From IMG/VR virus record IMGVR_UViG_3300045988_134682, positions 33,707 through 97,706 of that record: a stretch of DNA of 64,000 bases. One strand, written 5' to 3'. The stretch comes from a virus. The notes under the pieces were generated by a model. It searched no databases, was not told the origin of the DNA, and saw only the letters and a program-made list of their open reading frames with translations. Below, in pieces: positions 1,489-45,487 of this stretch. The position numbers were made by a program, and so were the translations under genes. Numbering within the stretch: position 1 is the stretch's first letter; every line of letters starts with the position of its first letter.

Positions 1489-1570
1489 GCTGGTATGGTG
1501 GAACGGTATACACGGCGGACTTAAAATCCGCTGGCTCCGAGCCTTGCGGGTTCGAATCCCGCTACCAGCA
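1489..1570 (+). tRNA. tRNA-Leu(TAA): tRNA-Leu (anticodon TAA), type II with long variable arm
   Basis: Acceptor gctggta/taccagc, anticodon stem gcgga/tccgc with loop cttaaaa, variable hairpin ggctccgagcc, T-arm cgggttcgaatcccg. Confidence 0.85.
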
Positions 1571-1655
1571 CTAACTAAAAATCAATAGGAGGGATAATAT
1601 ATGTTCTATCATATTGGTACAGTCTTCTAAGTCCTTGGAAAGGAGGATTTAGATA

Positions 1656-1976
1656 ATGAGTAGAAGTTATAAAAAAACGCCTTGGGCTGGAGACAAAAAA
1701 GGCAAAATAAAAAAACGGATTGCAAATCAGACAGTTCGTTCTTGGCTGAAACAGCATCCAGATGTAAAACTTTCAAAAAGCGATTTTAAAAAAATTTATG
1801 AAACTTGGGATATTTGTGATTATGGATATAAAATGACTTGGGAAGAATATTGGGAAAGTGAAATTAGACATTATTATTGGTTTAAAATGAATTTTCCTGA
1901 AGCAAAGAAATCTAAGTATTGTAAGTATCCAGACAAAAAAAAACTTATAGACAGTGGTACAAATGGTATAAAATGA
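1656..1976 (+). CDS. hypothetical protein (basic, Trp/Tyr-rich)
   Basis: ORF with strong RBS ggaaaggagg 9 nt upstream. Lies between tRNA genes. Confidence 0.5.
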   Translation: MSRSYKKTPWAGDKKGKIKKRIANQTVRSWLKQHPDVKLSKSDFKKIYETWDICDYGYKMTWEEYWESEIRHYYWFKMNFPEAKKSKYCKYPDKKKLIDSGTNGIK

Positions 1977-2010
1977 AATGATTTGATTTTTATAAAATTT
2001 TTTGATATAA

Positions 2011-2021
2011 TAAATATAGAA
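2011..2021 (+). promoter_or_regulatory. extended -10 promoter (TGaTATAAT) likely driving tRNA-Gly
   Basis: ttgatataat followed by the conserved atatagaaagttaa motif seen downstream of other promoters in this window. Confidence 0.4.
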
Positions 2022-2090
2022 AGTTAAAGAACTTTCCTCTTTTTAAATTTCTCTTAAAAATAGCAAATGTTTTAAACATTTGCTAAATAT

Positions 2091-2162
2091 GCGGGTGTGG
2101 TGTAGTTGGCAACATACGTGCCTTCCAAGCATGTGTCACGGGTTCAAATCCCGTTACCCGCT
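2091..2162 (+). tRNA. tRNA-Gly(TCC): tRNA-Gly (anticodon TCC)
   Basis: Acceptor gcgggtg/tacccgc, anticodon stem cgtgc/gcatg with loop cttccaa, T-arm acgggttcaaatcccgt. Confidence 0.85.
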
Positions 2163-2473
2163 CTAAAGAGCCATAAACTGCAAAATAATTTATATCTTTA
2201 AATGGATATTATTAATAAAATTACATACATATTAAAATATGATGATGCAATGCTTCTCAGTAAACTAAATAGGCTGGGCTCTTGATATATAAAGCAGTAT
2301 TAGTAAAAAGAAGCATCTATTTAATTTTTAATGGTTTTATAATTTACATTAAGGCATAAACAGCAATCGTTGATTAAATTCAAGCAAATATTTTATTATA
2401 TGAGAATAAAACATATTTTTGAAAAAGGATGATTATTATGCCTTGAAAAAAGGGCATTTTTGCCCCTCTTTTT

Positions 2474-2546
2474 GTGCCAGTAGCTTAGTTGGCAAAGCAC
2501 CGGACTTTTAATCCGGTTACCGCGGGTTCAAGTCCCGCCTGGCACA
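2474..2546 (+). tRNA. tRNA-Lys(TTT): tRNA-Lys (anticodon TTT)
   Basis: Acceptor gtgccag/ctggcac, anticodon stem ccgga/tccgg with loop cttttaa, T-arm gcgggttcaagtcccgc. Confidence 0.85.
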
Positions 2547-2560
2547 CTTTTTAAAGGAGA

Positions 2561-3034
2561 ATGAATATGAAAATTATGACATCTTATTTTTATCAGATTC
2601 GATTTTTTAAACCTTATATGATTCCTCTTAGTACAGCTAAATGGGATCCTAAATGGTTTCATAAAAGCCAAGGTCAAGATTATCAATTTAAAGATAAAAA
2701 TGGAGTGTGGAATGGTTTAAGAGCAGAGCCATTTGCGCCAGGTCCTTTATGTGAAGGATTATGCTCTGGTCCAAAAGGATGTGCAAGTGCCGCAAATGAT
2801 TGTATGTTTTTAAAAACCTATAAAATGCAATTAGAGCATTTAGATTTTCAAGATATTCTTTCAAGGATTGAGTCTATTGGATATGCTGTTAAAGAGCAAG
2901 AAAAATTCCAAGAGGAACCAGTTGTAATCTTAATTGTGCATGAAGCTTTTGGAAATCATTGTTCAGAACGTGAGCCAATTCAAGAGTGGTTTGCGGAGAA
3001 TGGGTATCCGATAGAAGAGTTTCAGGCGGGATAG
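2561..3034 (+). CDS. hypothetical protein
   Basis: ORF with RBS aaaggag. Its stop codon overlaps the 5' end of tRNA-Cys by 10 nt. Confidence 0.5.
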   Translation: MNMKIMTSYFYQIRFFKPYMIPLSTAKWDPKWFHKSQGQDYQFKDKNGVWNGLRAEPFAPGPLCEGLCSGPKGCASAANDCMFLKTYKMQLEHLDFQDILSRIESIGYAVKEQEKFQEEPVVILIVHEAFGNHCSEREPIQEWFAENGYPIEEFQAG

Positions 3035-3098
3035 CCAAGTTGGTTAAGGCGGCGGTCTGCAAAACCGCTATTCAGGGGTTCGAGTCCCCTTCCCGCCT
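3025..3098 (+). tRNA. tRNA-Cys(GCA): tRNA-Cys (anticodon GCA)
   Basis: Acceptor ggcggga/tcccgcc, anticodon stem gcggt/accgc with loop ctgcaaa, T-arm aggggttcgagtcccct. Confidence 0.85.
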
Positions 3099-3112
3099 CT
3101 TAAAAATCTTAA

Positions 3113-9460: not shown

Positions 9461-9480
9461 TTTTAGGAAGAAAAAATATT

Positions 9481-9873
9481 ATGGCAATTAATAAAGTTAT
9501 TGTAAATGGTGAAACCAAACTTGATTTAACAGCTGATACTGCTACCGTAGATAATGTTCAAAAAGGTTTTACTTTTCATGATGCTACTGGTGTATTAAAA
9601 ACTGGAGTAGCTAATGTTGGCGGAATAGATGGTTATTATATTGAAAAGATTTTCGATGCTGATGAAATTCATAATGATAATAGTACTGTAAGTGTTGATG
9701 TTACCACAAATGGTAAGTATTGCTTCTTTTGTATCGATGAACTTAGTAGCTATATTAATATAATTGAATGGTATGACGGTAGTAATGGTTATAATAAAAC
9801 AGTATATGTTATATCTACTCAGCCCATTGAAAATCTATCATGGTATGAAAATAGTTCTTCTTCCTCTTACTAA
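9481..9873 (+). CDS. hypothetical protein (tail module)
   Basis: ORF with Ser-rich C-terminus. Confidence 0.45.
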   Translation: MAINKVIVNGETKLDLTADTATVDNVQKGFTFHDATGVLKTGVANVGGIDGYYIEKIFDADEIHNDNSTVSVDVTTNGKYCFFCIDELSSYINIIEWYDGSNGYNKTVYVISTQPIENLSWYENSSSSSY

Positions 9874-9894
9874 TTTTAACTCTATACAACATTT

Positions 9895-11550: not shown

Positions 11551-11565
11551 AAAAGGAGGCAAGAT

Positions 11566-12687
11566 ATGAAAGCACTAATTACTGGAATTAATGGGCAAGA
11601 TGGTTCATATCTTGCCGAGTTACTTTTATCGAAAAATTATGAAGTTCATGGAATTATTCGTAGAACATCGACGAACAATTTAAATAGAATTCAACATATT
11701 TTATCTAAAATTACTTTACATTATGGAGATTTATCAGATAGTTTGTCTTTGATAAAAATAATTCAAAATGTAAAGCCTGATGAAATATATAATCTTGCCG
11801 CACAATCAGATGTTAAGGTGTCATTCTCAACACCAGAATATACTGCTGATATTGATGCATTAGGAACTCTAAGATTACTAGAAGCGTGCAGAATTTGTGG
11901 AATAGATAAAACAGTTAAGTTTTATCAAGCCTCTACTTCTGAATTATTCGGAAAAGTAGAGGCTTTTCCACAATCCGAAACCACGCCATTTCATCCCTAT
12001 TCTCCATACGCAATTGCAAAACAATATTCGTATTGGATTGTAAAAGAATATAGAGAAGCATATAGAATGTTTGCGGTAAATGGTATTTTATTTAATCATG
12101 AATCTGAAAGACGTGGTGAAGAATTTGTAACTCGTAAGATAACAAAATCTGTAGCTCATATTATGAATGGCACACAAGACCATTTAGAATTAGGGAATTT
12201 AGATTCTTTAAGAGATTGGGGATATGCAAATGATTATGTTGAAGCAATGTGGTTAATGCTTCAAAACGATACCCCAGATGATTTTGTTATTGCTACTGCG
12301 GATGATGGCATTTTGATTAGTTCAAGAAATGATGCTGAAAAAATCAGAAATTTAATTCCACTTCATAGACCTAATTATGAAGAAAAAAGATGGGGCGCAT
12401 ATAAAGTTTTAAAACAAGATGATAATTATCTTGTTAAAGAATTAGAACTATTGCCTTATAAAGAAATATCTTATCAATCTCATAATTATAGAAAAGAAAC
12501 ATGGACTATTGTTCAAGGGTCTGGAGAAGTAATTATTGATGGTATTACTCAACAGGTAAAGTCTGGTGATATAGTCAATATAGAAATAAAACAAAAGCAT
12601 AAACTTATTGCTGGAGAAAATGGGATTAAAATTTTTGAAGTGCAAATAGGAGATGTGCTAGAAGAGTCTGATATTATTAGATATTAA
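11566..12687 (+). CDS. GDP-mannose 4,6-dehydratase-like SDR (truncated) fused to C-terminal cupin domain
   Basis: N-terminus [31 protein letters not shown] matches Gmd and runs to DDFVIATA. The last 110 aa or so ([30 protein letters not shown]) resemble a cupin beta-barrel. Confidence 0.65.
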
Positions 12688-12707
12688 AATAGAAAGGAAT
12701 TTTTATT

Positions 12708-13463
12708 ATGGCAAAAAAATTTTTAGATAACGTTGGTTTGGCAAAATATAATGCGAAAATTAAAGAATATATTGATGCTCAAAACGACGCGGTGAAACAA
12801 CTTGTTGGAGAAACACTTGTTACTGCTCAAATTGAAACTGCTATTTCTAATGCTAAGACTGAGCTTGAGAATAAGATTGGCAATATTACTGAAGGTAAAA
12901 CTCTTGTAAGTATGATTGCTGATAATGCCGCTGCAATTGAAGCTCATAAGACTGCGGTTGATACTAAAGTAACTACTTTAATTGGCTCTGATACTGACAA
13001 GTCTGTTCGTGATATTGCTAATGAGGAGTTGGCTGCTCAGTTAATTCCTGATGACGCTAAAGAATCTCTTAATACTCTGCAAGAGATCGCTAATTGGATT
13101 CAAAATCATCCTGATGATGCTTCTGCAATGAATGCAGCTATTGCAGCTTTACAAGCAAAAACTAAACTCGGAACATATATTCCAGAGGGACAAACAGAAG
13201 CTGTTGAATATGCAACGGTTGATGCTTATGTAGAAGCTATTAAAAAAAGCTTAACAACAAATATTTCTACTGAATTATCAAGTAAGATAGATGCTAATAA
13301 GGATGCTATCGATATCATTAATGGCGATAGTAATACAGAGGGTTCTATCAATAAGGCTCTTGCAGATGCAAAAGCATATGCTGATAATAAAATTCAATCT
13401 ATGACTAATGAAGAAATTGAAGCTATTATCGCTAATGCAAAAACATCTCAACCTCAATCTTAA
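12708..13463 (+). CDS. Ala-rich coiled-coil structural (fibre-like) protein with shared N-terminal motif
   Basis: N-terminus MAKKFLDNVGLAKY is paralogous to CDS 7589 and CDS 13618. Heptad-rich Ala/Glu/Lys sequence. Confidence 0.5.
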   Translation: MAKKFLDNVGLAKYNAKIKEYIDAQNDAVKQLVGETLVTAQIETAISNAKTELENKIGNITEGKTLVSMIADNAAAIEAHKTAVDTKVTTLIGSDTDKSVRDIANEELAAQLIPDDAKESLNTLQEIANWIQNHPDDASAMNAAIAALQAKTKLGTYIPEGQTEAVEYATVDAYVEAIKKSLTTNISTELSSKIDANKDAIDIINGDSNTEGSINKALADAKAYADNKIQSMTNEEIEAIIANAKTSQPQS

Positions 13464-14030: not shown

Positions 14031-14840
14031 ATGAAAGATATTAGCTATTATTGGGCAGATAAATCTCAAAGAGCAATTATTGCACAAGAGCATACTAAGC
14101 AAATGAATGAGCAATTTGCTAGTGAGATTGCGGAAAGTGTAATGAATAGTAAAATTTATAGCAAAGATTTTAAAGCAACAACGCCCGCAAGAAATTTAGA
14201 GGAAGCAGATATTGCTCTTGATGCTGTTGGAAGTGTTGAAGCTATTGTAGCTTGCGATTCTACAGATGGAAAAGTTGCGGTTCTTAATTTCGCTTCATAT
14301 AAAAATCCTGGCGGAATGTTTATTAATGGGTCTCGTGCTCAGGAAGAATGTCTGTGCCATGAATCTTTTCTTTACAACGTATTAAGCCAAATTCCAAATT
14401 ATTATGATTGGAATGAAAAACACAAGAATCGTGCTTTATATGAGAATAGAGCAATTTATTCTCCAAATATCAGATTTGAGCATTCTGGCATTGAAAAATA
14501 CTGCGATGTAATTACTTGCGCCGCACCTAATTTTACTGCCGCTGCAAAGTATTGCAACGTAGATAGAAAAGAAAATAAAAAAGTTCTTGAATCAAGAATT
14601 CGATTCGTTTTTGAAGTAGCAAAACAGAATCAGGTTGATACTCTCATTTTAGGGGCTTTTGGATGCGGAGTGTTTGGACAGAATGCAGATGATGTTGCAG
14701 AAATTTTTATCAATCTGTTAGTTACAGATTATGCAACTGAATTTAAGAAAGTAATTTTCGCAATTCCGATTATCAATAATGATTCTATCAATTACAGTAA
14801 ATTTCAGAATATGTTTGATGAATTGTTAGAGGAGAATTAA
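14031..14840 (+). CDS. PARG-like macrodomain protein (DUF2263 / bacterial-type poly(ADP-ribose) glycohydrolase family)
   Basis: Signature NFASYKNPGGMFINGSRAQEECLC (GGG-x6-8-QEE) and glycine-rich ILGAFGCGVFGQN diphosphate-binding loop. Confidence 0.6.
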   Translation: MKDISYYWADKSQRAIIAQEHTKQMNEQFASEIAESVMNSKIYSKDFKATTPARNLEEADIALDAVGSVEAIVACDSTDGKVAVLNFASYKNPGGMFINGSRAQEECLCHESFLYNVLSQIPNYYDWNEKHKNRALYENRAIYSPNIRFEHSGIEKYCDVITCAAPNFTAAAKYCNVDRKENKKVLESRIRFVFEVAKQNQVDTLILGAFGCGVFGQNADDVAEIFINLLVTDYATEFKKVIFAIPIINNDSINYSKFQNMFDELLEEN

Positions 14841-15051: not shown

Positions 15052-15356
15052 CGTATATTTCTGAATATTTTTATAGTAATTGCTTAATCGAAGCTATTAA
15101 AGCTAAGATTAAGCATCCTATAAAAGTAAAAATAAAATATATTCCAGCAAGATTAAATGAAGTATTTTGTCCGCATTTAATGTGGCATGATGGTGAATAT
15201 ACTTATGATTTTTGGGCTTGCGGGCATTTAAAGCCATATCAAATTTTATGGCATAAAGGTAAGATAAGAAAAAACGAATATGATTATTATGATAAATGTA
15301 TAAAAACTTTAAAAGAATGGAAAGAAAGAGGTAAACAAGATGCCGGTAAGAGATGA
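15033..15356 (+). CDS. hypothetical protein
   Basis: ORF overlapping both neighbours (operonic). Confidence 0.4.
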   Translation: MVSKIMTYISEYFYSNCLIEAIKAKIKHPIKVKIKYIPARLNEVFCPHLMWHDGEYTYDFWACGHLKPYQILWHKGKIRKNEYDYYDKCIKTLKEWKERGKQDAGKR

Positions 15357-16215
15357 TTTAGGTACTCGTATGAAAACCTTTTATGAAAATATTCCTAAAA
15401 CTCGACTTATGAGAAGAGTTCCAGTAGCAATTAGGCTGGACGGCAAGGCGTTTCATACTTTTACAAGAGGTTTTCAAAAGCCATTTGATTTTGTGCTAAT
15501 GGATACAATGCAACAAACAATGAAATATTTATGTGAAAATATTCAAGGATGTGTATTGGGATATACTCAGTCTGATGAGATTACATTGATTCTTGTTGAT
15601 TATAAGAAATTAAATTCTGCTGCATGGTTTGATTATGAAGTTCAGAAAATGTGCAGTATCGCAGCAAGTATGGCTACAATGGCGTTTAATAGATTTTTCA
15701 TGTATGAATATGAAGAGTTTAATAGATGGGTTAATGAAGGAAATCCAACAGATGAAGATAGACGATTAAATGATATTTATTATGATGCGATGTGTAAAGG
15801 TGCAATGTTTGATGCACGTTGTTTCAATATTCCAAAAGAAGAAGTAACTAACCTCATTTATTGGCGGCAACTTGATGCAACAAGAAATAGTATTCAAATG
15901 GTTGGACAAGCTCATTTTTCACATGATGAGCTTCAAGATAAAACTTGTAATATGATTCAAGATATGTTAATGACCAAGTATGGCATTAACTGGAATGATT
16001 TTACAACACCATGTAAACGAGGCACTGCATGTATTAGAATTGGAAAAAAAGTAACTGAAAATATCAAAAGAGAACCTCAACCTTTTGGAGAAGATAAAGT
16101 TACAACTACAATTATTGAAGAAAGACCTATCTGGGTTATTGACAAGAATATGCCTATTTTAAAAGGCGAAGACCGCAAATATGTTGATGATTTAATTTAC
16201 ATAGGAGAAGAATAA
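15340..16215 (+). CDS. Thg1-like protein (tRNA-His guanylyltransferase family, 3'-5' nucleotidyltransferase)
   Basis: VPVAIRLDGKAFHTFTRGFQKPFD...VLGYTQSDEITLIL aligns with the Thg1/TLP core motifs (RxDG+xFHxF, KPxD, YGQSDE). Confidence 0.75.
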   Translation: MPVRDDLGTRMKTFYENIPKTRLMRRVPVAIRLDGKAFHTFTRGFQKPFDFVLMDTMQQTMKYLCENIQGCVLGYTQSDEITLILVDYKKLNSAAWFDYEVQKMCSIAASMATMAFNRFFMYEYEEFNRWVNEGNPTDEDRRLNDIYYDAMCKGAMFDARCFNIPKEEVTNLIYWRQLDATRNSIQMVGQAHFSHDELQDKTCNMIQDMLMTKYGINWNDFTTPCKRGTACIRIGKKVTENIKREPQPFGEDKVTTTIIEERPIWVIDKNMPILKGEDRKYVDDLIYIGEE

Positions 16216-16368
16216 ATGATAAGAGGATATAGCATTTCTGAAGAGGATATTGATAGAGTAATGCCTTTTGTAAGAGGTGTGATTCATGAACTTGAAGTCA
16301 GTATTTCTATGTATTATTGCGGATATACAGGAGAAATTTCTTTGGGTATTTGTGAGGAGGAATGCTAA
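16216..16368 (+). CDS. small hypothetical protein (50 aa)
   Basis: Start adjacent to the upstream stop. Overlaps the next start. Confidence 0.3.
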   Translation: MIRGYSISEEDIDRVMPFVRGVIHELEVSISMYYCGYTGEISLGICEEEC

Positions 16369-16796
16369 TGGGGTGTAATTATGATATTACAAAAGTGAAT
16401 AAATTATTTAATTTGGCAGTTCAATATTATCCTAAGAAAAAATTAGTTCATGCTTTGCGGGTTGCTGAATATGCGACCGCAAAAGCCAGTGCTTTAAAAA
16501 TTGATACAGTAAAGACTTATATGATCGCCTTAGCGCACGATTTGTTAGAGGATACTGAATGTCCAAAAGAAGATTTAATGTCTATTTTAGGTATAGAGAG
16601 TTATAATTCAGTAGTTCTTTTAACTAAAGATGCACAAGAAAAATATGAAGATTATATTCATAAGATTCTTGATGCAGGAGATGACTATGCTTTTGTTGTT
16701 AAACAGGCAGATATGAAAGACCATATGACTTTAACTGATACACTTACAGAAAAATTGCTGGATAAATATATTCCTGTATTGCATTATTTCTTATAA
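16362..16796 (+). CDS. HD-domain phosphohydrolase (YfbR/DatZ-like dNTPase or Mesh1/SpoT-like hydrolase)
   Basis: H...HALRVA...ALAHDLLEDT motif (H, HD, D metal ligands). Confidence 0.55.
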   Translation: MLMGCNYDITKVNKLFNLAVQYYPKKKLVHALRVAEYATAKASALKIDTVKTYMIALAHDLLEDTECPKEDLMSILGIESYNSVVLLTKDAQEKYEDYIHKILDAGDDYAFVVKQADMKDHMTLTDTLTEKLLDKYIPVLHYFL

Positions 16797-17258: not shown

Positions 17259-18080
17259 ATGGCAGATCTTAATACAATAACTAAAGCGGCTAGTGGTATT
17301 CAAGAGCATTATCTTGAATCTAAACAATACTTTGCTAAGAATAATATTGTAGGTATTTTTCTACAAGGTAGTCAGAATTATGGTCTTGAAACTGAAGATT
17401 CTGATATTGATACAAAACTTATTACCACTCCAACATTAAATGATTTAATTTATAACCGAAAACCTATGTCTACAACTCATTTTAGGGCTAATGGGGAACA
17501 TATTGATTTTAAAGATATTAGGCTTATGTTTGATACTTTCCGCAAACAGAATCTAAATTTTATTGAGATTCTGTTCACTAATTATAAAATCATCAATCCA
17601 ATGTATGAAAAAGAGTGGAATAAATTGATTGCGGAAAATGAAGTTATTGCACATTATAATCCTTATTTCGCAGTAAAAGCTATGTCTGGCATTGCTCTTG
17701 GAAAAAGATATGCTCTTACTAAAGAAACAGAAGCTCATAAAGGAACCTTTGAAAAGTTTAATTATGACCCAAAACAGCTTTATCAGCTTGTGAGAATTGA
17801 TGAATATCTCGATAAATATATTGCTGGAGCGCCATATAAAGAATGTTTGTGTCCAGCTAACCCGCAATATTTAAAAGACATTAAAACTGGTCTTTATTCA
17901 AAAGAAGAAGCTATTAAAGTTGCAGATGAACATATGACTCATATTGATAAAATTTGTGCCCCATATACAAAAGATTCTGAATTTAACTACATTGATGAAG
18001 AAGCTGAAAATCTTCTGCAAGAAGTCCAAGCGGAAATTATGAAGAAAAGTATTGCTTTTGAATTGGAGGAAAAGAAATGA
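17259..18080 (+). CDS. Pol-beta-superfamily nucleotidyltransferase-domain protein
   Basis: GSQNYGLETEDSDID (GS-x10-DxD) motif near the N-terminus. Helical C-terminal domain. Confidence 0.5.
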   Translation: MADLNTITKAASGIQEHYLESKQYFAKNNIVGIFLQGSQNYGLETEDSDIDTKLITTPTLNDLIYNRKPMSTTHFRANGEHIDFKDIRLMFDTFRKQNLNFIEILFTNYKIINPMYEKEWNKLIAENEVIAHYNPYFAVKAMSGIALGKRYALTKETEAHKGTFEKFNYDPKQLYQLVRIDEYLDKYIAGAPYKECLCPANPQYLKDIKTGLYSKEEAIKVADEHMTHIDKICAPYTKDSEFNYIDEEAENLLQEVQAEIMKKSIAFELEEKK

Positions 18081-18865
18081 TTAAACAGTTTTTTGTAACA
18101 GGAGATACACATGGCTGTATGGATCGTTTTACATGGCTTGAAATACAAAATCCAAAAGAGACTGGTATTATTATCTTAGGAGATGCAGGTGTAAATTTTT
18201 ATAAAAGTGCGGCAAGGCAACATGATATTAAGATGCAACTTGAACAATATGGATGTACATTTTATTTGGTAAGGGGGAATCATGAGGCTCGTCCAGAAGA
18301 TGTTAAAGGCATTGAAGAGGTTTGGGATGATGATGTTGCGAATTATGTTTTCATTGAACCCGGTTATCCTCATATCCATTATCTTATGGATGGCTCTAAT
18401 TATGATTTTCTTGGTCATAATACACTTGTAATAGGTGGAGCTTATTCTGTGGATAAATGGTATAGACTTGAAAATCATTATACTTGGTATCCAAACGAAC
18501 AATTAACAGAAGCAGAAATGCAGGCTATTGAAGCAATGTATGCGGGACAAAGTTTTGATTTTGTTTTTACTCATACTTGTCCATTAAGCTGGGAACCAAC
18601 TGACTTATTTTTATCTATGATTGACCAGTCTACTGTAGATGATTCTATGGAAGTTTGGCTTGATTCTTTTAAAGATAAGATTAATTGGGGCGTTTGGCTG
18701 TTTGGTCACTTTCACGCAGATAGAATGGAGCGCCCGCATGTTGAACAATATTTTAAAGCAATCGAAGATTTAGAAGAGATATGGAAAAGATGGAATGATC
18801 CAAATTATTTACTTCCAACTTATTTTAGAAAATCTCCTAATTTTAATAAAGGAAAAACTGAATAA
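18077..18865 (+). CDS. calcineurin-like metallophosphoesterase
   Basis: Motifs GDTHG, GDAG, GNHE and GHFH. Confidence 0.65.
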   Translation: MIKQFFVTGDTHGCMDRFTWLEIQNPKETGIIILGDAGVNFYKSAARQHDIKMQLEQYGCTFYLVRGNHEARPEDVKGIEEVWDDDVANYVFIEPGYPHIHYLMDGSNYDFLGHNTLVIGGAYSVDKWYRLENHYTWYPNEQLTEAEMQAIEAMYAGQSFDFVFTHTCPLSWEPTDLFLSMIDQSTVDDSMEVWLDSFKDKINWGVWLFGHFHADRMERPHVEQYFKAIEDLEEIWKRWNDPNYLLPTYFRKSPNFNKGKTE

Positions 18866-19140: not shown

Positions 19141-19959
19141 ATGAAATATTTTATTGACTTTGAAGCAATGCAGTTTTCCAATTATATTATTTCTGTTGGA
19201 TGTGTTCGAGAAGATGGAAAAGAATTTTATTCTCTTGTACATACCCCAGAGAATACAAATAAGAATGTTTCTAAGTTTATCACTGATTTAACAGGTATTA
19301 CTACAGAAATGGTTGAGGCAGCTCCTTCTCCAGAAGAGGTATTCAATGAGTTTTTTGATTTTTGTTTTGAAGATTGCGGCGATGACATTCCTGAATTTTA
19401 TTGTTATGGGAATTGTGATACAGATTTTATCAAAGCAACCTTCCGCAAAACAAATAGTTTTAAAGCAAAAGCAATTCTTGGTTATATGAATACAGATATG
19501 AAAGATTTTGCTCCTGCTGTTAAGGTTCATTTTGGCTTAATCAAACTGATTAACCTCGCTAAAGTTTGCGAATATTTTAGAGGAGAAGAGGTTGTTCAGA
19601 CTCATAATTCTCTTGACGATGCAAAGATGTTAAAAGAAGTTTATGAAGGCTGTAAAAATGAAAAAGCTTCTGAAGTAGATGCAAATGTCTTTATGGAGTA
19701 TAAGGAAATTACAACCGACCAGATTGAATATGAAGATACTCGTTTTGATGTTTTTTGTTGCCCTACTAAAAATTTTGAAGAAGAAAGAACTAAGAAATTT
19801 GAAAATCTTAAAGAAGCAGTTGAATACGTTAAATCATATGATAAGAGCATGAGAAATAATCCGACTGTAAATGTCCACAATATTGCCAAAAGGATTAAAA
19901 AATCCTATAATACAAAGAAACAGTACAACTTCTACTATTGGAAATTTGAGGTGAAATAA
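19141..19959 (+). CDS. DEDDh 3'-5' exonuclease (DnaQ/epsilon-like), candidate proofreading subunit or RNA exonuclease
   Basis: Exo I FIDFEA, Exo II ...YGNCDTDF region and Exo III HNSLDDAKML motifs. Confidence 0.6.
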   Translation: MKYFIDFEAMQFSNYIISVGCVREDGKEFYSLVHTPENTNKNVSKFITDLTGITTEMVEAAPSPEEVFNEFFDFCFEDCGDDIPEFYCYGNCDTDFIKATFRKTNSFKAKAILGYMNTDMKDFAPAVKVHFGLIKLINLAKVCEYFRGEEVVQTHNSLDDAKMLKEVYEGCKNEKASEVDANVFMEYKEITTDQIEYEDTRFDVFCCPTKNFEEERTKKFENLKEAVEYVKSYDKSMRNNPTVNVHNIAKRIKKSYNTKKQYNFYYWKFEVK

Positions 19960-20288
19960 TGATTAAACTTTGGATTGATGATATGCGGCCCGCGCCAGAT
20001 GAATCTTATATTTGGATTAAGAGTGTTTGGGATGCAGAAATGTGTCTTACTACTCTTGTAAGACCAGAAGGAGACATTCTTGAAGTTAATGAAATTAATT
20101 TAGATCATGATGCTGGTGAATATTATGAAAAAGGCGGAGATTATATTAAAATTCTTGATTGGCTTGAATGTTGCCAAAGACTGCGTGGCTGGCATATTTA
20201 TGCAACTTTTAAATTTCATAGTATGAATCCTGTTGGAGTTCAAAATATGAAAAGAGTTTGTAAGGAAGCTGGTTGGAGAATTGAGTAA
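19959..20288 (+). CDS. hypothetical protein
   Basis: Coupled ORF. Confidence 0.4.
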   Translation: MIKLWIDDMRPAPDESYIWIKSVWDAEMCLTTLVRPEGDILEVNEINLDHDAGEYYEKGGDYIKILDWLECCQRLRGWHIYATFKFHSMNPVGVQNMKRVCKEAGWRIE

Positions 20289-20674
20289 TGGAATATTGGA
20301 GAAGACAAAGATTAAAAGAAATTATAAAACACATTGTAGTTGTGGTACTTATTGTCGCAGCTTGTATTGGAATTATAACTGGGATAATAAAGTATTATGA
20401 CCAATTTTATTTAAAAACTGAAGTAAGAGCAGTTGAAGTTATAAATAAAGAAGATGATGTACATCATTCTTTTGTAATGAGCGGGAAAGTTCTTATTCCT
20501 ATTACAAATCATTCATATTATTTATATGGCGTAAATAATGAAAAAGTAAGCGTTTCTTCTTCTATATTTAATGCGGTTAAAGAAGGAGATAAGATACAGG
20601 TAAAATGTACCTATGTTTACTATAAAAAAGATGATTCTTTACATAAAATAGAGTATAAATATTTAGAGGAATAA
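20288..20674 (+). CDS. hypothetical membrane protein
   Basis: TM helix IVVVVLIVAACIGIITGII. Confidence 0.4.
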   Translation: MEYWRRQRLKEIIKHIVVVVLIVAACIGIITGIIKYYDQFYLKTEVRAVEVINKEDDVHHSFVMSGKVLIPITNHSYYLYGVNNEKVSVSSSIFNAVKEGDKIQVKCTYVYYKKDDSLHKIEYKYLEE

Positions 20675-20677
20675 AAT

Positions 20678-21253
20678 ATGAAAATTAAAAACTTTTTTGG
20701 GCACTTAAAAACGGTATGTAAACATAAATATTGGGTAGGAAAATACTGCTTTAAAATTGGTCTTTATAAGCAGGGAATTACACACGATTTATCCAAATTT
20801 TCTCCTGTTGAATTTTGGGAAGGTGTCAAATATTGGCAGGGGACTCGTTCTCCGATAGATGCTTGTAAAGAGGAAAATGGAATGTCCTTTGCTTGGCAGC
20901 ATCATAAAGGTCGGAATCGACACCATTACGAGTACTGGTTCGATAACATTGATAAAGGCGGCACCGCACTCCCAATGCCAGATAAGTATCTTTTGGAGCT
21001 ACTCTGTGATTATTTAGGTGCGGGACATGCTTATATGGGAAAAAATTTTACATATCAAGAAGAATATAAGTGGTGGCAGAATAAGATTAAGAATCCTATT
21101 GCTATGCATCCTGCGACTAAAATTTTTATAGATAAAGTATTATCTCGTTTAGCATGGAGAGAAGAGCATAATGTTGGATATAAGGCACTTTTAAATAAGA
21201 AAAATCTCATTAAGATTTATCACGAATGTTTGAAAGAAACAGATCTTAATTGA
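20678..21253 (+). CDS. hypothetical His/Trp-rich protein
   Basis: ORF; no recognisable motif. Confidence 0.4.
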   Translation: MKIKNFFGHLKTVCKHKYWVGKYCFKIGLYKQGITHDLSKFSPVEFWEGVKYWQGTRSPIDACKEENGMSFAWQHHKGRNRHHYEYWFDNIDKGGTALPMPDKYLLELLCDYLGAGHAYMGKNFTYQEEYKWWQNKIKNPIAMHPATKIFIDKVLSRLAWREEHNVGYKALLNKKNLIKIYHECLKETDLN

Positions 21254-21278
21254 TTTACTTTTAAAATTTTTATATAAT
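21249..21278 (+). promoter_or_regulatory. sigma-70-like promoter
   Basis: ttgatt 21249-21254, 18-nt spacer, tataat 21273-21278. Confidence 0.45.
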
Positions 21279-21310
21279 ATATTTACAATAAATAAAGGAG
21301 ATTGATAGGT

Positions 21311-22492
21311 ATGCTGAATGAAAAGAAAGAAAGAGAGCTTGCTTATGTTGTCAAAGTTGATGAGATTCGTCCTATTGAAGGAGCTGACAGAGTAGAAGTA
21401 GCTATCGTAAATGGTTGGCATATTATGGTTCGTAAAGACCAATTTAAGCCAGGCGATTTAGCTGTTTACTTTGAGATTGATTCTAAAGTTCCAGCAGAAG
21501 AGCCATTTATGTTCCTTGAGCCGAAACATTTTAAAATTAAAACTCAGAAATATTTTAAAGGCACTGTAATTTCTCAGGGTCTGCTTATGAGCTTTGAAGA
21601 CTTCGGTTGGGAAAAGGACGCTTATAAACTTGGTGACTTTTTAACTCAGAAATTAAAAGTAACTTATGCAGTTGAAGAAGATAATGCTCGTAAAGCATCT
21701 TCTGTGGATAAGTATAAAAAGATGGCTCAGAGACATGGAAAATTGTTCTCTCATCAGCCTTTTAGATGGTTAATGCGTAGAACTTGGGGTAAGAAAATTT
21801 TATTCATGTTCTTCGGTAAAACTTCTGATAAGAAAACCGGATGGCCGACATGGGTTTCTAAAACAGATGAAGAGCGTGTACAGAATATGCCTTGGATTCT
21901 TGAGAATAAAAATCCATGGGTTGCAACTGAAAAAATTGATGGTACTTCTACTACCTTTACAATGAAAAGAATTAAGACTCGTTTCTTGAAGAAAGAAAAA
22001 TTTGAGTTTTATATCTGTTCTCGTAACGTAGTATTTGATAGACCAGATAAGTCTTGCTTTTATGATACTAATGTTTACGTTGAGATGGCTGAAAAGTATA
22101 ATGTTGAAGCAACTCTCCAGGAGATTCTCAGAAATCGTCCAGACCTTGAATGGGTAACACTTCAGGGTGAAACTTATGGTCAGGGTATCCAGAAGAGAGA
22201 ATACTCTCTGAAAGAGCATAACTTTATGGGATTTAACTTCATTACTTCTGCGGAAGGTCGTTGGGATTCTAAACGGGCAAGCAAGTTGATGATGGAGTAT
22301 GGTATTCCGTGGGTGCCGATTGTTGATGAAAACTTTATCCTTCCAGATACAGTTGATGAACTTCTTGCTATTGCTACCGGTGATTCTGTGATAGATGGAA
22401 AGATGCGTGAAGGTCTTGTATTCCGTTCTCAGGATGGCGTTCAGTCCTTTAAGGCTGTTTCCAATGAATTTCTACTGAAGTTCCATTCTTAA
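21311..22492 (+). CDS. ATP-dependent RNA ligase-like nucleotidyltransferase (Rnl5/DraRnl-like: N-terminal OB domain plus ligase NTase)
   Basis: Motif I ATEKIDGTS (KxDG), motif IV EGLVFR, motif V SFKAVSNEFLLK. About 200-aa N-terminal OB-like domain. RBS aaaggag 11 nt upstream of ATG 21311. Confidence 0.6.
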   Translation: MLNEKKERELAYVVKVDEIRPIEGADRVEVAIVNGWHIMVRKDQFKPGDLAVYFEIDSKVPAEEPFMFLEPKHFKIKTQKYFKGTVISQGLLMSFEDFGWEKDAYKLGDFLTQKLKVTYAVEEDNARKASSVDKYKKMAQRHGKLFSHQPFRWLMRRTWGKKILFMFFGKTSDKKTGWPTWVSKTDEERVQNMPWILENKNPWVATEKIDGTSTTFTMKRIKTRFLKKEKFEFYICSRNVVFDRPDKSCFYDTNVYVEMAEKYNVEATLQEILRNRPDLEWVTLQGETYGQGIQKREYSLKEHNFMGFNFITSAEGRWDSKRASKLMMEYGIPWVPIVDENFILPDTVDELLAIATGDSVIDGKMREGLVFRSQDGVQSFKAVSNEFLLKFHS

Positions 22493-22524
22493 AGAATGGA
22501 ACTTCTAAGAAAGGAGTAAATGCT

Positions 22525-22704
22525 ATGAGATTTTTATATCTTATAACAGCACTTTTAGATTTAGTAGCTTGTATTCTTTTTATAGTACAAGCTGTACTCG
22601 CTACAACAAATTTTAAGATTGGAACTTCAATCTTTTGTGCTATATGTTGGGGAGTTTGTTTTATTTTGAATTTAATAATGACTATAGATGACTTTAAGAA
22701 ATAA
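22525..22704 (+). CDS. small membrane protein (59 aa, two TM helices)
   Basis: RBS aaaggag. Hydrophobic segments. Below the ORF-track length cutoff. Confidence 0.4.
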   Translation: MRFLYLITALLDLVACILFIVQAVLATTNFKIGTSIFCAICWGVCFILNLIMTIDDFKK

Positions 22705-22723
22705 ATAAAAAGGAGTAAAGGAA

Positions 22724-22915
22724 ATGGCAAAGACACGAGAAATCGCTTGTATTCATTATGTATGTAACGGAAAATGTGATTTGGGCAAAGAGGCTGACTT
22801 CTACGGTCATTGCCAGACTTGCCCAACGTATAAAAAGAAGCCAGGTGGTAAGCCAGCCAGAACGGATAACCGCAGACAAAAAATGGATAGGATTTTAAGA
22901 AAGGAGAAATATTAA
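22724..22915 (+). CDS. small Cys-rich basic protein
   Basis: RBS aaaaggag. CxxxxNGKC...HCQTC pattern. Confidence 0.45.
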   Translation: MAKTREIACIHYVCNGKCDLGKEADFYGHCQTCPTYKKKPGGKPARTDNRRQKMDRILRKEKY

Positions 22916-23169
22916 TGTTCCATTTTAAAATCTTTTATTCAGATCAAGATCCGCAGGAAGTGGAGATTCTTTTTGATAAGAATCTCCATAAATATCGTTA
23001 TGTAAATCTTACTAAACATCATATTTGTAAATGCACTTTTGCATCAGAATTAGATGCTATTAGAGATTTGCGAAAATATCCAAACATTACAGAAATTCTT
23101 TTAACAGCTTCTCCAAAGAGAAACGTTGAAGATTTTATTACCACTTTTGAAGAAAGGTTAGGAAAATAA
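22915..23169 (+). CDS. hypothetical protein
   Basis: Coupled ORF. Confidence 0.4.
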   Translation: MFHFKIFYSDQDPQEVEILFDKNLHKYRYVNLTKHHICKCTFASELDAIRDLRKYPNITEILLTASPKRNVEDFITTFEERLGK

Positions 23170-23465
23170 TGTTTCTTGAATTACATATTTCAAAAGATAA
23201 TAAAAATTCATATCGAAAACTTTGTATTTCAAAAGATAATATGTTTAATACTTGGAGATATGTTTTTATTCCAGATTTAAACGAAGACGATTTGGAATGT
23301 CATATTGAAAGACAACAGTTTCCGAATGAAACATTAGCAATTAAAGAACTTTTAAATATTCCAGGGATTGTAGGAGTAAAAGAATTAGTTGCATTATCGT
23401 CAACTTATAAAGCTTTTACACCAGTAGAAGATTTTGTAAAAGAATATTATAAAGGAGAGAATTAA
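23169..23465 (+). CDS. hypothetical protein
   Basis: Coupled ORF. Confidence 0.4.
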   Translation: MFLELHISKDNKNSYRKLCISKDNMFNTWRYVFIPDLNEDDLECHIERQQFPNETLAIKELLNIPGIVGVKELVALSSTYKAFTPVEDFVKEYYKGEN

Positions 23466-23466
23466 A

Positions 23467-23928
23467 ATGACACTTGATACAGTTATGAAAGAGATGGTTA
23501 CTGCAATGAAGGCTAAAGACAAGGCTCGAAAAGATATTATTTCTAGTCTTGTTGATGCTATTAAAAAGGCGGCTATTGATAAAAATTGCCGAAATAACAT
23601 TCCAGAAGACATGGTTGATGCAGTTATCTTAAAAGAGCAAAAAACCGTACAGGAAATGATTGATACCTGCCCTGCCGCAAGAATAGACCTTTTGGAATCT
23701 TATAAGTATAGACTTGAAGTAATTAAAGAATTTGCTCCAACTCTTATGACAGAGGATGAAATTCGATCTTTTATTAATGAAGAGTTAATTGAGCTTACTC
23801 AGGTCGTTACTGAACCTATTGGACCAAAAATGAAGGGTATGGTTATGAAAAATATTATGCCTAAACTTAAAGGCAAAGCAGATGGAAAACTTATCAATAA
23901 AGTTCTTACTGAACTTTTGAACCAGTAG
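23467..23928 (+). CDS. GatB/YqeY-domain protein
   Basis: MKEMVTAMKAKDKARKDII...LTEDEIRSFINEE...GMVMKNIMPKLKGKADGKLINKVLTELL closely mirrors the YqeY family pattern. Confidence 0.6.
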   Translation: MTLDTVMKEMVTAMKAKDKARKDIISSLVDAIKKAAIDKNCRNNIPEDMVDAVILKEQKTVQEMIDTCPAARIDLLESYKYRLEVIKEFAPTLMTEDEIRSFINEELIELTQVVTEPIGPKMKGMVMKNIMPKLKGKADGKLINKVLTELLNQ

Positions 23929-23938
23929 GAGGTTATAT

Positions 23939-24478
23939 ATGTTTAATAGTCCCGATGGAACAATGTTCAGATTTAAAAATGGTAAGTCTCTAAGTCATTC
24001 TATCCCTATTTTAAATAGGGAAGAAACTATTGATGAATATCTTGACAATATTAAAGTCAACCTTCTTGACAAGCAGAAAACTATTGAATCTTTGAGAGAA
24101 AAGATAGATAATTTTGAAAAAGAAACATACGCAACTAAAGAAATGCAGGATATGAAGAAACAGAGAGATGCGGCGCTGGCTGATATGTGGAGAGGTTTTC
24201 CGATTACTGAGAAGGAAAGTGTAGCTATCAGAGATTGGAAAAAGAAACATGATACTGAAGTTCATGGAAACCCGCATGGATATCATGGTTGCTCAGGTGG
24301 CGGATATACATATATGTTTTATCCAACAAGTATTGGTACTGTTGGATCTTGTAGATGTGATATTTGTCATCAAAGAGCAATGACTGCAGCATGTGCGCAT
24401 GGATCTTATGATCGGAATGTATACCAGGCTGAAATGAAAGAAAGAGGTGGCACTTTTGACTTTCAAACATTGGATTAA
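23939..24478 (+). CDS. hypothetical Cys/His-rich protein
   Basis: HGNPHGYHGCSGGG...CRCDICHQRAMTAACAHG pattern. Confidence 0.4.
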   Translation: MFNSPDGTMFRFKNGKSLSHSIPILNREETIDEYLDNIKVNLLDKQKTIESLREKIDNFEKETYATKEMQDMKKQRDAALADMWRGFPITEKESVAIRDWKKKHDTEVHGNPHGYHGCSGGGYTYMFYPTSIGTVGSCRCDICHQRAMTAACAHGSYDRNVYQAEMKERGGTFDFQTLD

Positions 24479-24618
24479 AGATATTACTATTTATCGTAGC
24501 TTGTGTGACAGGTGCTATTTTAAGCACTAAATTTAATGAGCCAAGTCATATCTATATAATAGGTTTTATTTTTGGCGGGATCGCACAAATTATTTTAAAT
24601 ATAATACATTATTAACGT

Positions 24619-24656
24619 AATGCCCTATCAAAAAGATAGGGCATTGATTTTTTATA
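24619..24656 (+). terminator. rho-independent terminator
   Basis: aatgccctatc/gatagggcatt stem followed by T6. Confidence 0.7.
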
Positions 24657-24870: not shown

Positions 24871-24914
24871 GTAAACAACAAATAATTATTATAAAAGATA
24901 TGAGGTGTAAAAAT

Positions 24915-25655
24915 ATGAGTCATGTATATTGTTGTTCTGATCTTCATGGTCAGTATGATTTATGGGAAATGGTAAAAAATATTGTATATGCAGACAATAG
25001 TTTTTGCTACATTTTAGGTGATTGTGTAGATAGGGGTCCAGCAGGATTCAAGATTTTAAAAGAAGTTCTTGAAGATTCTGAACATTTCTTCTTAATCTGC
25101 GGCAACCATGAACAGATGTTTGCAGATTCTATGCGGATAAAGCATTGCACAAGACTTCATTGTGCTAATGGTGGTCAATCTACTTTTGATGAATGGAAAG
25201 CAGATGGAAGTGATAGAAAATACATTGATATTATCGACAACTTGCCTAAGTGGTATCGTTATGATAATAAAAATGGAGAAGTTGTAATTTTATCTCATTC
25301 AGGTTTTACGCCTGGCCCACACTTAGGATTTCCAGAGTTTGAAGATGATTTTATTTGGAATCGAGATCATTTTGATGATGAATGGGATGAAAAAGGCGGA
25401 ATGGATAATGTAATTCTTATTCATGGACATACTCCTGTACCTCTTTTAAGTCATCATTCTTATGAATATATGTGTGAGATGAGTGGAAAGAAAGCTTCTC
25501 ATGGAGCATATTTCTATTGCAAAGATTCTGCTGGCAAAGCTCATAAAATTGATATTGATGGCGGATGTTTCTTTACAGGAAGTTTACCATTAATTGATTT
25601 GGATACTTTGGAACAAAATGTATTATTTGATGCAAATAGCATTTTTGAGGACTAA
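24915..25655 (+). CDS. PPP-family Ser/Thr (lambda-phosphatase/ApaH-like) metallophosphatase
   Basis: Motifs SDLHG, GDCVDRGP, GNHE and GHTP. RBS gaggtg before ATG 24915. Confidence 0.7.
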   Translation: MSHVYCCSDLHGQYDLWEMVKNIVYADNSFCYILGDCVDRGPAGFKILKEVLEDSEHFFLICGNHEQMFADSMRIKHCTRLHCANGGQSTFDEWKADGSDRKYIDIIDNLPKWYRYDNKNGEVVILSHSGFTPGPHLGFPEFEDDFIWNRDHFDDEWDEKGGMDNVILIHGHTPVPLLSHHSYEYMCEMSGKKASHGAYFYCKDSAGKAHKIDIDGGCFFTGSLPLIDLDTLEQNVLFDANSIFED

Positions 25656-33900: not shown

Positions 33901-34149
33901 ATGATTCAAAACTTAATATTTTTTATTTTAGGAATAATTTTTATTGAATTAATAATTCCTGTAATAGAGGCTCTAACAATAGTAATTGTCACTGCTTTAG
34001 AGGTTGCCAAAGGTAAACTAAACATGACAATTTCTAAATATAATATACAAATCCAAAAGATGGCAGAAGAACTTGAGCCAGAAAATACACGCGCCATTGG
34101 GTTTGTAGTACAAAATAATGAACCAGAGGAAGAAGAGGAAGACGAATGA
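33901..34149 (+). CDS. small membrane protein with acidic tail
   Basis: RBS aaaaggagg. TM helix LIFFILGIIFIELIIPVI. Confidence 0.4.
   Translation: MIQNLIFFILGIIFIELIIPVIEALTIVIVTALEVAKGKLNMTISKYNIQIQKMAEELEPENTRAIGFVVQNNEPEEEEEDE

Positions 34150-43508: not shown

Positions 43509-45487
<1,979 letters not shown>

Follow-up and report, generated by a model that had tools for sequence, protein, structure and literature searches.

The 64,000-nucleotide (nt) stretch of DNA examined here, referred to below as the window, comprises positions 33,707 to 97,706 of IMG/VR record IMGVR_UViG_3300045988_134682 and derives from an uncultured phage of about 195 kb. At 21311..22492 on the + strand it carries a gene whose 393-amino-acid (aa) product can be assigned with high confidence to the ATP-dependent polynucleotide ligases of the Rnl5 family, the type known from the Naegleria gruberi enzyme NgrRnl and the Deinococcus enzyme DraRnl, and within that family to the PHA02142/PHROG 968 phage sub-branch. 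By analogy with the characterised members of the family, we infer that the enzyme would be specific for RNA. It probably acts as the sealing step of a phage RNA-break repair in which the healing enzymes are encoded separately. This heal-and-seal role is proposed because homologues of a kinase and of a metallophosphoesterase each lie within 3 kb of the ligase gene in 32 of 56 clusters of related loci, often in a tight operon.

Family, fold and active site of the ligase

The ligase gene, the domains of its product and the residues predicted to act in catalysis are located as follows.

21311..22492, + strand: Rnl5-family RNA ligase gene, 393 aa plus stop (open reading frame (ORF), Pfam, NCBIfam, PHROG, PDB, HMMER, AlphaFold/Foldseek)
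21294..21301, + strand: Shine-Dalgarno sequence AAAGGAGA, read from the sequence, 9 nt 5' of ATG 21311
21332..21664, + strand: N-terminal OB-fold domain, aa 8-118, which includes R8 (PF21189, NgrRnl alignment, model beta strands 11-93)
21665..21841, + strand: basic helical linker, aa 119-177 (AlphaFold model; unaligned to NgrRnl)
21842..22489, + strand: nucleotidyltransferase (adenylyltransferase) domain, aa 178-393 (PF09414, NgrRnl alignment)
21875..21877, + strand: R189, equivalent to NgrRnl R149, an ATP gamma-phosphate contact (alignment; role from PMC7261155)
21932..21943, + strand: motif I KIDG, with K208 equivalent to NgrRnl K170 (predicted AMP-accepting lysine) and D210 to D172 (alignment; PMC4408790)
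22160..22171, + strand: motif III LQGE, with E287 equivalent to NgrRnl E227 (alignment; PMC7261155)
22409..22426, + strand: motif IV EGLVFR, with E367 equivalent to NgrRnl E312 (alignment)
22451..22471, + strand: motif V KAVSNEF, with K381 equivalent to NgrRnl K326, the motif V lysine (alignment)

Judged by its conservation, the ORF is clearly a real gene and not a chance one, because its product matched 6784 cluster representatives at an expectation value (E) of 1e-3 or below in a full-library HMMER search (724 at E<=1e-30), and because the motif residues were invariant in an alignment of 71 sequences. Counted from TTG 21302 to the stop at 22492 on the + strand, the ORF has 396 codons. ATG 21311 is the likely start, and is preferred because it stands at a spacing of 9 nt from the Shine-Dalgarno sequence and gives a protein of 393 aa, in agreement with the homologues; metagenome gene calls for homologues that are 93-96% identical give 393 aa as well. 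TTG 21302 was rejected as a start, as the Shine-Dalgarno sequence ends at 21301, 0 nt away.

Two Pfam families were found on the protein above their cut-offs, the PHA02142 OB-fold PF21189 (aa 10-93, 7e-22) and the RNA_ligase family PF09414 (aa 202-383, 1.6e-20). There was no third family at E<=1, and thus no DNA-ligase or capping-enzyme family. PHROG 968 ('RNA ligase'), a 398-position profile, was matched from end to end (3.2e-64), and the best NCBIfam model was TIGR02306 (RNA_lig_DRB0094), that of the Deinococcus DraRnl family (E 3.8e-27); TIGR02307, the Rnl2 model, gave 22.4 bits against a cut-off of 197. A search of the PDB by sequence returned NgrRnl entries alone at E<=1 (best 2.3e-28), and no DNA ligase or capping enzyme was matched at that threshold. 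The alignment with NgrRnl was collinear, residues 8-118 of the query pairing with chain positions 5-121 in the OB domain and residues 178-390 with chain positions 139-336 in the nucleotidyltransferase domain, at about 26-27% identity.

An AlphaFold2 model was built on the 71-sequence alignment, in which identity to the query ranges from 36% to 61%, and had a mean predicted local distance difference test (pLDDT) score of 94.8 and a predicted template modelling (pTM) score of 0.89. When this model was compared with the PDB by Foldseek, the top 13 matches were NgrRnl entries (E 1.5e-26 to 1.2e-24, target template modelling (TM) score 0.78-0.85, ~400 aligned columns). T4 Rnl2 was matched over the catalytic core only (E 2.5e-9, ~254 columns, query TM 0.41), as was trypanosome REL1 (E about 1e-8 to 1e-9, query TM about 0.4). 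Next in rank were Rnl3 enzymes from archaea, DNA ligases appeared only at E>=4e-5 with TM<0.3, and the T4 Rnl1 structure was not among the top 50 matches. A search of a viral structure library agreed with this picture.

A first-pass annotation, made from the letters alone, had described the product of this gene as an Rnl5-like RNA ligase rather than one of T4 Rnl1 or Rnl2 type, and the Pfam and PHROG assignments together with the NgrRnl sequence and fold matches bear this out. The motifs on which it had relied, KIDG, EGLVFR and KAVSNEF, are present at aa 208-211, 367-372 and 381-387. The Naegleria/Deinococcus Rnl5 domain order that it proposed is seen in both sequence and fold, the OB and catalytic domains being collinear with those of NgrRnl. 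The comparison of a predicted structure with NgrRnl that it had suggested gave a full-length fold match (best E 1e-26, TM about 0.83), and the best matches by profile and by structure were to RNA ligases, not to DNA ligases or capping enzymes. Its description of a roughly 200-aa OB-like domain was correct in placing the OB fold at the N-terminus, but too generous in length: the region N-terminal to motif I is about 207 aa long, of which the OB fold takes up only about 110 aa, the rest being filled by the linker and the start of the nucleotidyltransferase domain.

The architecture is that of DraRnl and of NgrRnl (PDB 5COT and related entries), the structural prototype of Rnl5, with an N-terminal OB domain followed by the nucleotidyltransferase domain and no C-terminal appendage. 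Motif V ends at aa 387 of 393, and the model shows a single terminal helix at 385-391. It is the absence of a C-terminal appendage that separates Rnl5 from Rnl1-4 and Rnl6 (PMC7261155). The catalytic-core fold is shared with T4 Rnl2, as is the in vitro specificity of the characterised Rnl5 enzymes, a duplex nick with an RNA 3'-OH strand (PMC5397189); however, Rnl2 lacks the N-terminal OB fold and carries a C-terminal domain, for which the window ligase has no residues left. T4 Rnl1 differs in consisting of a nucleotidyltransferase domain and a C-terminal tRNA-specificity domain, and in ATP-dependent DNA ligases and mRNA capping enzymes the nucleotidyltransferase domain is followed by a C-terminal OB domain.

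Residues of NgrRnl are numbered here as the PDB chain index minus one. In that enzyme K170 accepts AMP, D172, E227 and E312 hold the catalytic metal through waters, and the gamma-phosphate of ATP is contacted by R149 from the catalytic domain and by R4 and K121 from the OB domain (PMC7261155, PMC4408790). Equivalents of K170, D172, E227, E312, K326, R149 and R4 are all present in the window ligase, R4 being aligned with R8 of its OB domain. R189, K208, D210, G211, E287, E367 and K381 were invariant in 71 of 71 sequences, and R8 was kept in 69 of the 71. As read from the alignment and the predicted model, the Rnl5 active site and fold are intact in this ligase.

Two findings weigh against a simple assignment to the NgrRnl/DraRnl type. 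The score for TIGR02306 (95.1 bits) missed the equivalog cut-off of that model (151.15 bits), which on the sequence comparisons indicates a divergent phage sub-branch (PHA02142/PHROG 968) and not another family. In addition, the position of NgrRnl Lys121 is occupied by Tyr119, although a conserved R127-K128 pair near Y119, found in 44 of the 71 sequences, might stand in for the missing lysine.

The clearest structural departure from NgrRnl is the linker, which has 59 aa compared to about 17 residues at the equivalent point of NgrRnl. In the model it forms four short helices (122-128, 134-141, 149-155 and 158-168), with a mean pLDDT of 81-96 over 10-residue blocks. It holds 15 K/R and 5 D/E residues, whereas the whole ligase is nearly neutral. 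Because most of the 71 aligned homologues carry the linker, and because the 398-position profile of PHROG 968 was matched end to end, the linker can be read from the alignments as a feature of the phage branch that is not unique to the window gene. The PHROG 968/PHA02142 phage proteins resemble the ligase in this end-to-end profile match and in length, and since the lengths are similar it is likely that they share the linker. Members of the PHROG 968 type come from Pseudomonas phages JG004, phiPMW and UNO-G1W1, Aeromonas phages phiAS4 and 44RR2.8t, Burkholderia phage BcepSauron and Sinorhizobium phage phiM12. An additional contact surface for nucleic acid is a plausible function for such a basic segment.

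Many homologous ligases are 530-800 aa long and contain an intein right after TDEER, the sequence holding the Arg149 equivalent; this intein is Cys-flanked and ends HN|C. In one homologue of 1120 aa (P0160) a second intein follows directly after motif I KIDG. The insertion points map to aa 189/190 (nt ~21877) and aa 211/212 (nt ~21943) of the window ligase, which has no intein. The inteins of P0160 and of a second homologue (P0123) appear to bear a region like a homing endonuclease, and that of a third (P0156) is a shorter mini-intein. Split matches of the intein type were seen in roughly 20 of the best 150 representatives. Together with the phage-type linker, inteins at two active-site positions of the homologues offer small handles for enzymology.

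Linkage to predicted end-healing genes and proposed role

All 85 ORFs of the window were used to search 80 related IMG/VR loci, with ligases 44-98% identical. The loci were collapsed to 56 clusters at 80% ligase identity, and all counts given are counts of clusters. The number of clusters in which a homologue was found within 3 kb and within 10 kb of the ligase gene was as follows.

Metallophos_2 esterase: 32/56 within 3 kb, 39/56 within 10 kb
Kinase: 32/56 within 3 kb, 37/56 within 10 kb
Pol-beta nucleotidyltransferase: 14/56 within 3 kb, 19/56 within 10 kb
262-aa phosphoesterase: 10/56 within 3 kb, 11/56 within 10 kb
PIN-PhoH protein: 9/56 within 3 kb, 18/56 within 10 kb
Lambda-phosphatase-like esterase: 8/56 within 3 kb, 12/56 within 10 kb
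Thg1-like protein: 4/56 within 3 kb, 11/56 within 10 kb
GyrB: 2/56 within 3 kb, 22/56 within 10 kb
LigA: 0/56 within 3 kb, 9/56 within 10 kb

At least one kinase or phosphoesterase homologue lay within 10 kb of the ligase in 46 of the 56 clusters, and DUF5662 lay within this distance in four. The closest arrangement is illustrated by a related locus (L018) in which the ligase (9992-11239), kinase (11286-11786) and esterase (11788-12333) genes directly follow one another, separated by 46 and 1 nt. Another locus (L011) has a phosphoesterase gene first, then the ligase, a small ORF, the kinase and the esterase, and the 262-aa phosphoesterase is found directly 5' of the ligase in several relatives. 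The ligase-kinase-esterase arrangement persists where the ligases share 44-66% identity, and also where rearrangement has put the kinase-esterase pair 5' of the ligase in some loci and 3' in others. This recurrent arrangement provides a testable clue that phage Rnl5 enzymes act on healed RNA (or RNA-ended) breaks.

The window ligase itself sits in a run of genes for RNA-end processing, which includes those for a Thg1-like protein, a Pol-beta nucleotidyltransferase, phosphoesterases, an RNase T-like exonuclease and a cREC protein. In favour of a role in RNA repair, the phage also has tRNA genes, tRNA-Lys(UUU) among them. The genes concerned, with their neighbours, are listed below.

14031..14840, + strand: microbial-type PARG/macro-domain protein, where the series of RNA-processing genes begins (Pfam 7.6e-30)
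15340..16215, + strand: Thg1-like protein, a 3'-5' nucleotidyltransferase (Pfam Thg1 3e-28; PDB 4kgk, Bacillus thuringiensis Thg1-like, 5e-52)
16362..16796, + strand: HD-domain protein
17259..18080, + strand: Pol-beta-fold nucleotidyltransferase (Pfam Polbeta 3.6e-4, below cut-off; PHROG 388, 4e-18)
18077..18865, + strand: calcineurin-like metallophosphoesterase, 262 aa (Pfam Metallophos 2.7e-8; PHROG 1649)
19141..19959, + strand: RNase T/DEDDh exonuclease (Pfam RNase_T 2.6e-16)
19959..20288, + strand: cREC protein, a predicted cyclic-phosphate-processing receiver-like domain (Pfam cREC_REC 6e-13)
20678..21253, + strand: DUF5662 protein, immediately 5' of the ligase (Pfam 2.4e-33)
23467..23928, + strand: YqeY
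24900..25655, + strand: lambda-phosphatase-like metallophosphoesterase (PHROG 246 1.4e-35; best PDB match lambda phosphatase 1g5b, 1e-6)
29870..30388, + strand: polynucleotide-kinase-like P-loop kinase (Pfam AAA_33 8e-17; PHROG 505 'polynucleotide kinase' 8e-18)
30385..30936, + strand: Metallophos_2 esterase, whose start overlaps the kinase stop by 4 nt (Pfam 3e-8; PHROG 547 6e-45)

The kinase, whose start at 29870 was taken from a 172-aa gene call in a relative, has a P-loop (GPAGSGKT) and the motif SRDEVR (S-x-D-x-x-R). Its best PDB match was 4gp7 (3e-4), which we take to be the kinase domain of Clostridium thermocellum Pnkp. It is predicted from its sequence to heal 5'-OH ends, and the Metallophos_2 esterase that overlaps it is predicted to heal 3' ends. 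The kinase and the lambda-phosphatase-like gene both match parts of PHROG 8238, a 737-position profile of kinase-phosphatase-ligase type, the latter gene matching its middle part. RNA ends may be the substrates of one or more of the three metallophosphoesterases (18077, 24900 and 30385), and possibly of cREC, whose genes are linked to that of the ligase. Relatives of Thg1 repair the 5' ends of tRNAs. The Pol-beta-fold nucleotidyltransferase is possibly an end-filling enzyme, and no sequence relative was found for it in the PDB. RlaP was considered as an identity for this protein and rejected, as there was no PF10127 match at E<=0.01 and only PF18765 and PF01909 were matched, weakly and below their cut-offs. 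The PARG/macro protein may be linked to NAD/ADP-ribose conflict systems. In comparative-genomic work on phage RNA repair, RNA ligases have been linked with kinases, Pol-beta nucleotidyltransferases, calcineurin-like esterases and cRec (PMC7824862, PMC9503650), a scheme with which the one proposed below agrees, and the linkage of cRec with RNA ligase specifically has been described (PMC7824862).

A course of repair can be proposed on the basis of homology to NgrRnl for the ligase and of gene neighbourhood for its partners. The polynucleotide-kinase-like enzyme would convert a 5'-OH into a 5'-phosphate, and the metallophosphoesterase or metallophosphoesterases, possibly with cREC, would convert a 2',3'-cyclic or 3'-phosphate into a 3'-OH. 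Ends might be restored or trimmed by the Pol-beta nucleotidyltransferase, the RNase T-like exonuclease and the Thg1-like enzyme. The substrate expected for the ligase is a duplex with a 3'-OH/5'-PO4 nick in which RNA forms the 3'-OH strand. Characterised Rnl5 enzymes form ligase-AMP with ATP and Mn2+ or Mg2+ (PMC4408790, PMC5397189). In the first step K208 would attack the alpha phosphate of ATP to form ligase-AMP, with D210, E287 and E367 holding the catalytic metal through waters and K381, R189 and R8 positioning the ATP phosphates. The AMP would then be moved onto the 5'-phosphate at the nick, and attack of the RNA 3'-OH on the adenylylated end would seal the nick and free AMP.

The same three activities are combined in the known heal-and-seal systems, T4 Pnkp with Rnl1 and the bacterial Pnkp of Clostridium thermocellum, and in many relatives they are predicted side by side. 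As in those systems, a gene like that of a polynucleotide 5'-kinase is encoded with the ligase, a likeness known here from the sequence. Unlike bacterial Pnkp, in which kinase, phosphatase and ligase form one protein, the window phage would have the activities on separate polypeptides, and its ligase is of the Rnl5 type and not Rnl1 or Rnl4. The gene also differs from those of NgrRnl and DraRnl in being phage-encoded and linked to kinase and phosphoesterase genes.

Several points weigh against the proposed role in RNA repair. In the window itself the kinase-esterase pair lies 7.3 kb 3' of the ligase, in a separate transcription unit. None of 11 named neighbour genes was found within the available flanks in 10 of the 56 clusters, six of which had full 10-kb flanks, and the related loci share ancestry, so that the cluster counts are not independent events. 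The literature mentioning Rnl5 yielded no biochemistry of a phage Rnl5 enzyme, and the in vivo data, which within Rnl5 exist for DraRnl alone, point to 'ribo-patch' repair of DNA and not to RNA repair (PMC5397189). The characterised Rnl5 enzymes need a duplex nick, whereas tRNA anticodon loops, which ribotoxins classically attack, are single-stranded. The two cultured-phage loci that were inspected, those of UNO-G1W1 and phiAS4, were uninformative: no annotated kinase or esterase flanks the ligase there, and most genes around it are hypothetical or belong to T4-like replication, while Rnl1 and PseT are found a few kb from it in phiAS4.

An alternative, which we consider unlikely on balance, is that the same Rnl5 ligase serves DNA metabolism and seals genome nicks with a ribonucleotide 3' end ('ribo-patch' gaps or unprocessed RNA primers), as has been proposed for DraRnl. 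Deletion of DraRnl sensitises Deinococcus to ionising radiation and slows genome reassembly (PMC5397189), and Rnl5 enzymes join an RNA 3'-OH to a DNA 5'-phosphate in duplexes (PMC4408790), only the 3'-OH strand of a duplex with a nick having to be RNA for the characterised enzymes (PMC4408790, PMC5397189). The window is rich in replication genes, GyrB and LigA occur within 10 kb of the ligase in the clusters tabulated above, and a kinase with a 3'-phosphatase could heal DNA ends too. However, the genes nearest to the ligase are the kinase and the phosphoesterases, found within 3 kb in 32 of the 56 clusters, compared to two for GyrB and none for LigA. The gene neighbourhood favours end-healing partners over replication genes, and DNA ends would be compatible with it as substrates. 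According to the DraRnl study, DNA repair, RNA repair or the two together may be the task of enzymes of the Rnl2 and Rnl5 types (PMC5397189).

Repair of single-stranded breaks in tRNA anticodon loops after attack by an anticodon nuclease, in the manner of T4 Rnl1, is improbable to a greater degree. The phage does have a tRNA-Lys(UUU) and three other tRNAs in addition to the predicted healing enzymes, and by Foldseek the OB domain was weakly like tRNA-binding OB folds (the PheRS beta subunit and 3bu2, E 1e-4 to 1e-3), but NgrRnl and DraRnl have been characterised as template-directed nick sealers (PMC4408790, PMC5397189), T4 Rnl1 was missing from the top 50 Foldseek matches, and the ligase ends 6 residues past motif V, with no C-terminal tRNA-specificity domain of the Rnl1 type. 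It is very hard to credit that the product is an mRNA capping enzyme, a DNA ligase dependent on ATP or a structural protein that has lost catalysis. Covalent nucleotidyltransferase motifs are common to all three classes, and a second function, the non-catalytic attachment of tail fibres, is annotated for T4 Rnl1; but DNA ligases and capping enzymes gave no Pfam or PDB sequence match at E<=1, the OB fold is N-terminal and not C-terminal, and DNA ligases scored below a TM of 0.3. Moreover, of the seven active-site and ATP-contact positions of NgrRnl that were checked, six are conserved (five invariant, R8 in 69 of 71) across homologues down to 36% identity, which speaks against a dead enzyme.

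Sealing of RNA breaks after healing by the separately encoded enzymes therefore remains the reading that we prefer. A fuller version of it is offered more tentatively, as something quite possible without being likely. According to this proposal, a large clade of uncultured phages of 100-200 kb has recruited Rnl5 as the sealer of a split Pnkp-like RNA repair system made up of ligase, kinase and metallophosphoesterase, with Pol-beta, Thg1-like, cREC and RNase T proteins often as accessories, and the clade-specific linker fits the ligase for structured targets, for example stems of tRNA or rRNA that host ribotoxins have cut. Were this to hold, the Rnl5 family would gain its first physiological role in RNA repair. 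The wider value of the gene arrangement is modest but real, and the ligase, kinase and esterase form a compact three-gene set for in vitro reconstitution.

Source phage and distribution of the family

The exact ligase protein is present in public collections, where it is labelled 'hypothetical protein' and lies on contigs as long as 194.7 kb, from which the phage size of about 195 kb was derived. It can now be named as an Rnl5-type RNA ligase, which by itself is a routine gain in annotation, as the ligase is a new and unnamed but otherwise ordinary member of a known family, and PHROG 968 is already annotated. Bacteriophages have already been named among Rnl5 hosts (PMC4408790, PMC7261155).

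No nucleotide-level relative of positions 20000-24000 of the window was found by megablast among 50,697 deposited phage genomes; the phage is therefore not close to any cultured phage. Using tblastn, the ligase was matched in 332 deposited phage genomes, in 313 of which the match covered at least 80% of the protein. Identity was about 31% or less in the full-length matches, and the highest value among the matches listed was 33.8%, over 73% of the query. The matched phages included Pseudomonas phages of the Pakpunavirus and Otagovirus groups, T4-like Aeromonas phages and several jumbo phages, and among the matches listed many were annotated as 'RNA ligase' and others as 'hypothetical protein'.

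Transcription signals and other genes of the window

The window has ~32% G+C. Of 87 ORFs picked greedily, 82 are on the + strand and the remaining five, of 59-229 aa, on the - strand. A promoter-like sequence, a terminator-like hairpin and further genes were located as follows.

21250..21278, + strand: promoter-like TTGATT-N17-TATAAT directly 5' of the ligase gene, an exact copy of the motif
24618..24646, + strand: terminator-like hairpin, a 12-pair stem followed by a T-rich tail, the first strong one 3' of the ligase
43512..45467, + strand: NAD-dependent DNA ligase LigA, 651 aa (Pfam DNA_ligase_aden 1.8e-43, DNA_ligase_OB, HHH_5, BRCT)
1489..3099, + strand: four tRNA genes (Leu-UAA, Gly-UCC, Lys-UUU and Cys-GCA)

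In the window the motif TTGATT-N17-TATAAT is found 14 times in exact form, each time on the + strand (at 103, 1983, 3113, 13969, 17198, 18878, 21250, 24644, 27731, 33336, 37682, 45713, 48679 and 57285), against a chance expectation of 0.10. Six copies were aligned, and all six were in intergenic gaps; five had near-identical flanks, and the copy at 21250 was more diverged. At several sites an extended consensus, TTGATTTTTTAT.AAAAAT.TA.TATAATATATATAGAAA, was observed, located after terminator-like hairpins. The set looks like a phage promoter family for a host polymerase of sigma-70 type. The hairpin at 24618..24646 probably ends the transcription unit of the ligase, which would comprise the ligase, five small ORFs, YqeY and a 179-aa ORF. 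The stop codon of the ligase is spanned by an inverted repeat of 9 bp, TTCCATTCT-TAA-AGAATGGAA (22480-22500, + strand), after which there is no T-run.

Replication genes in the window comprise gyrB, gyrA, LigA, DnaB, RecJ, Pol III alpha and RNase H. The separate NAD-dependent LigA noted in the first-pass annotation is indeed encoded by the phage, as its Pfam domains confirm. When the window was scanned with Rfam for structured RNAs that might be partners, such as one like a Y-RNA, the four tRNAs alone were detected. A 507-aa protein with DUF2828 and DUF7788 is encoded after the tRNA genes (3358-4881, + strand), and its homologues lie within 10 kb of the ligase in nine of the 56 clusters. The PIN-PhoH protein counted above is a fusion of a PIN nuclease domain with a PhoH-like ATPase (34146-35393, + strand).

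A divergent protein like adenylosuccinate synthetase is encoded at 28094-29272 on the + strand (Pfam 1.3e-18). PurZ, known from 2-aminoadenine genomes, was considered for this ORF, and the assignment was not made, since by sequence it gave only weak matches to cellular PurA structures. Two ORFs with a GIY-YIG endonuclease domain were found on the + strand, at 46157-47149 and 62099-62824. The Pol III alpha ORF (59728-61908, + strand) has 726 aa only and ends within the finger domain, the second GIY-YIG ORF coming next, so that a mobile element may have split the polymerase gene. A block of surface- or glycan-related genes extends over 8084-13463 on the + strand, and includes genes for a BspA-type leucine-rich-repeat protein (8084-9460), a GT2 and Stealth glycosyl/phosphotransferase (9895-11550) and a fusion of GDP-mannose 4,6-dehydratase with a cupin (11566-12687).

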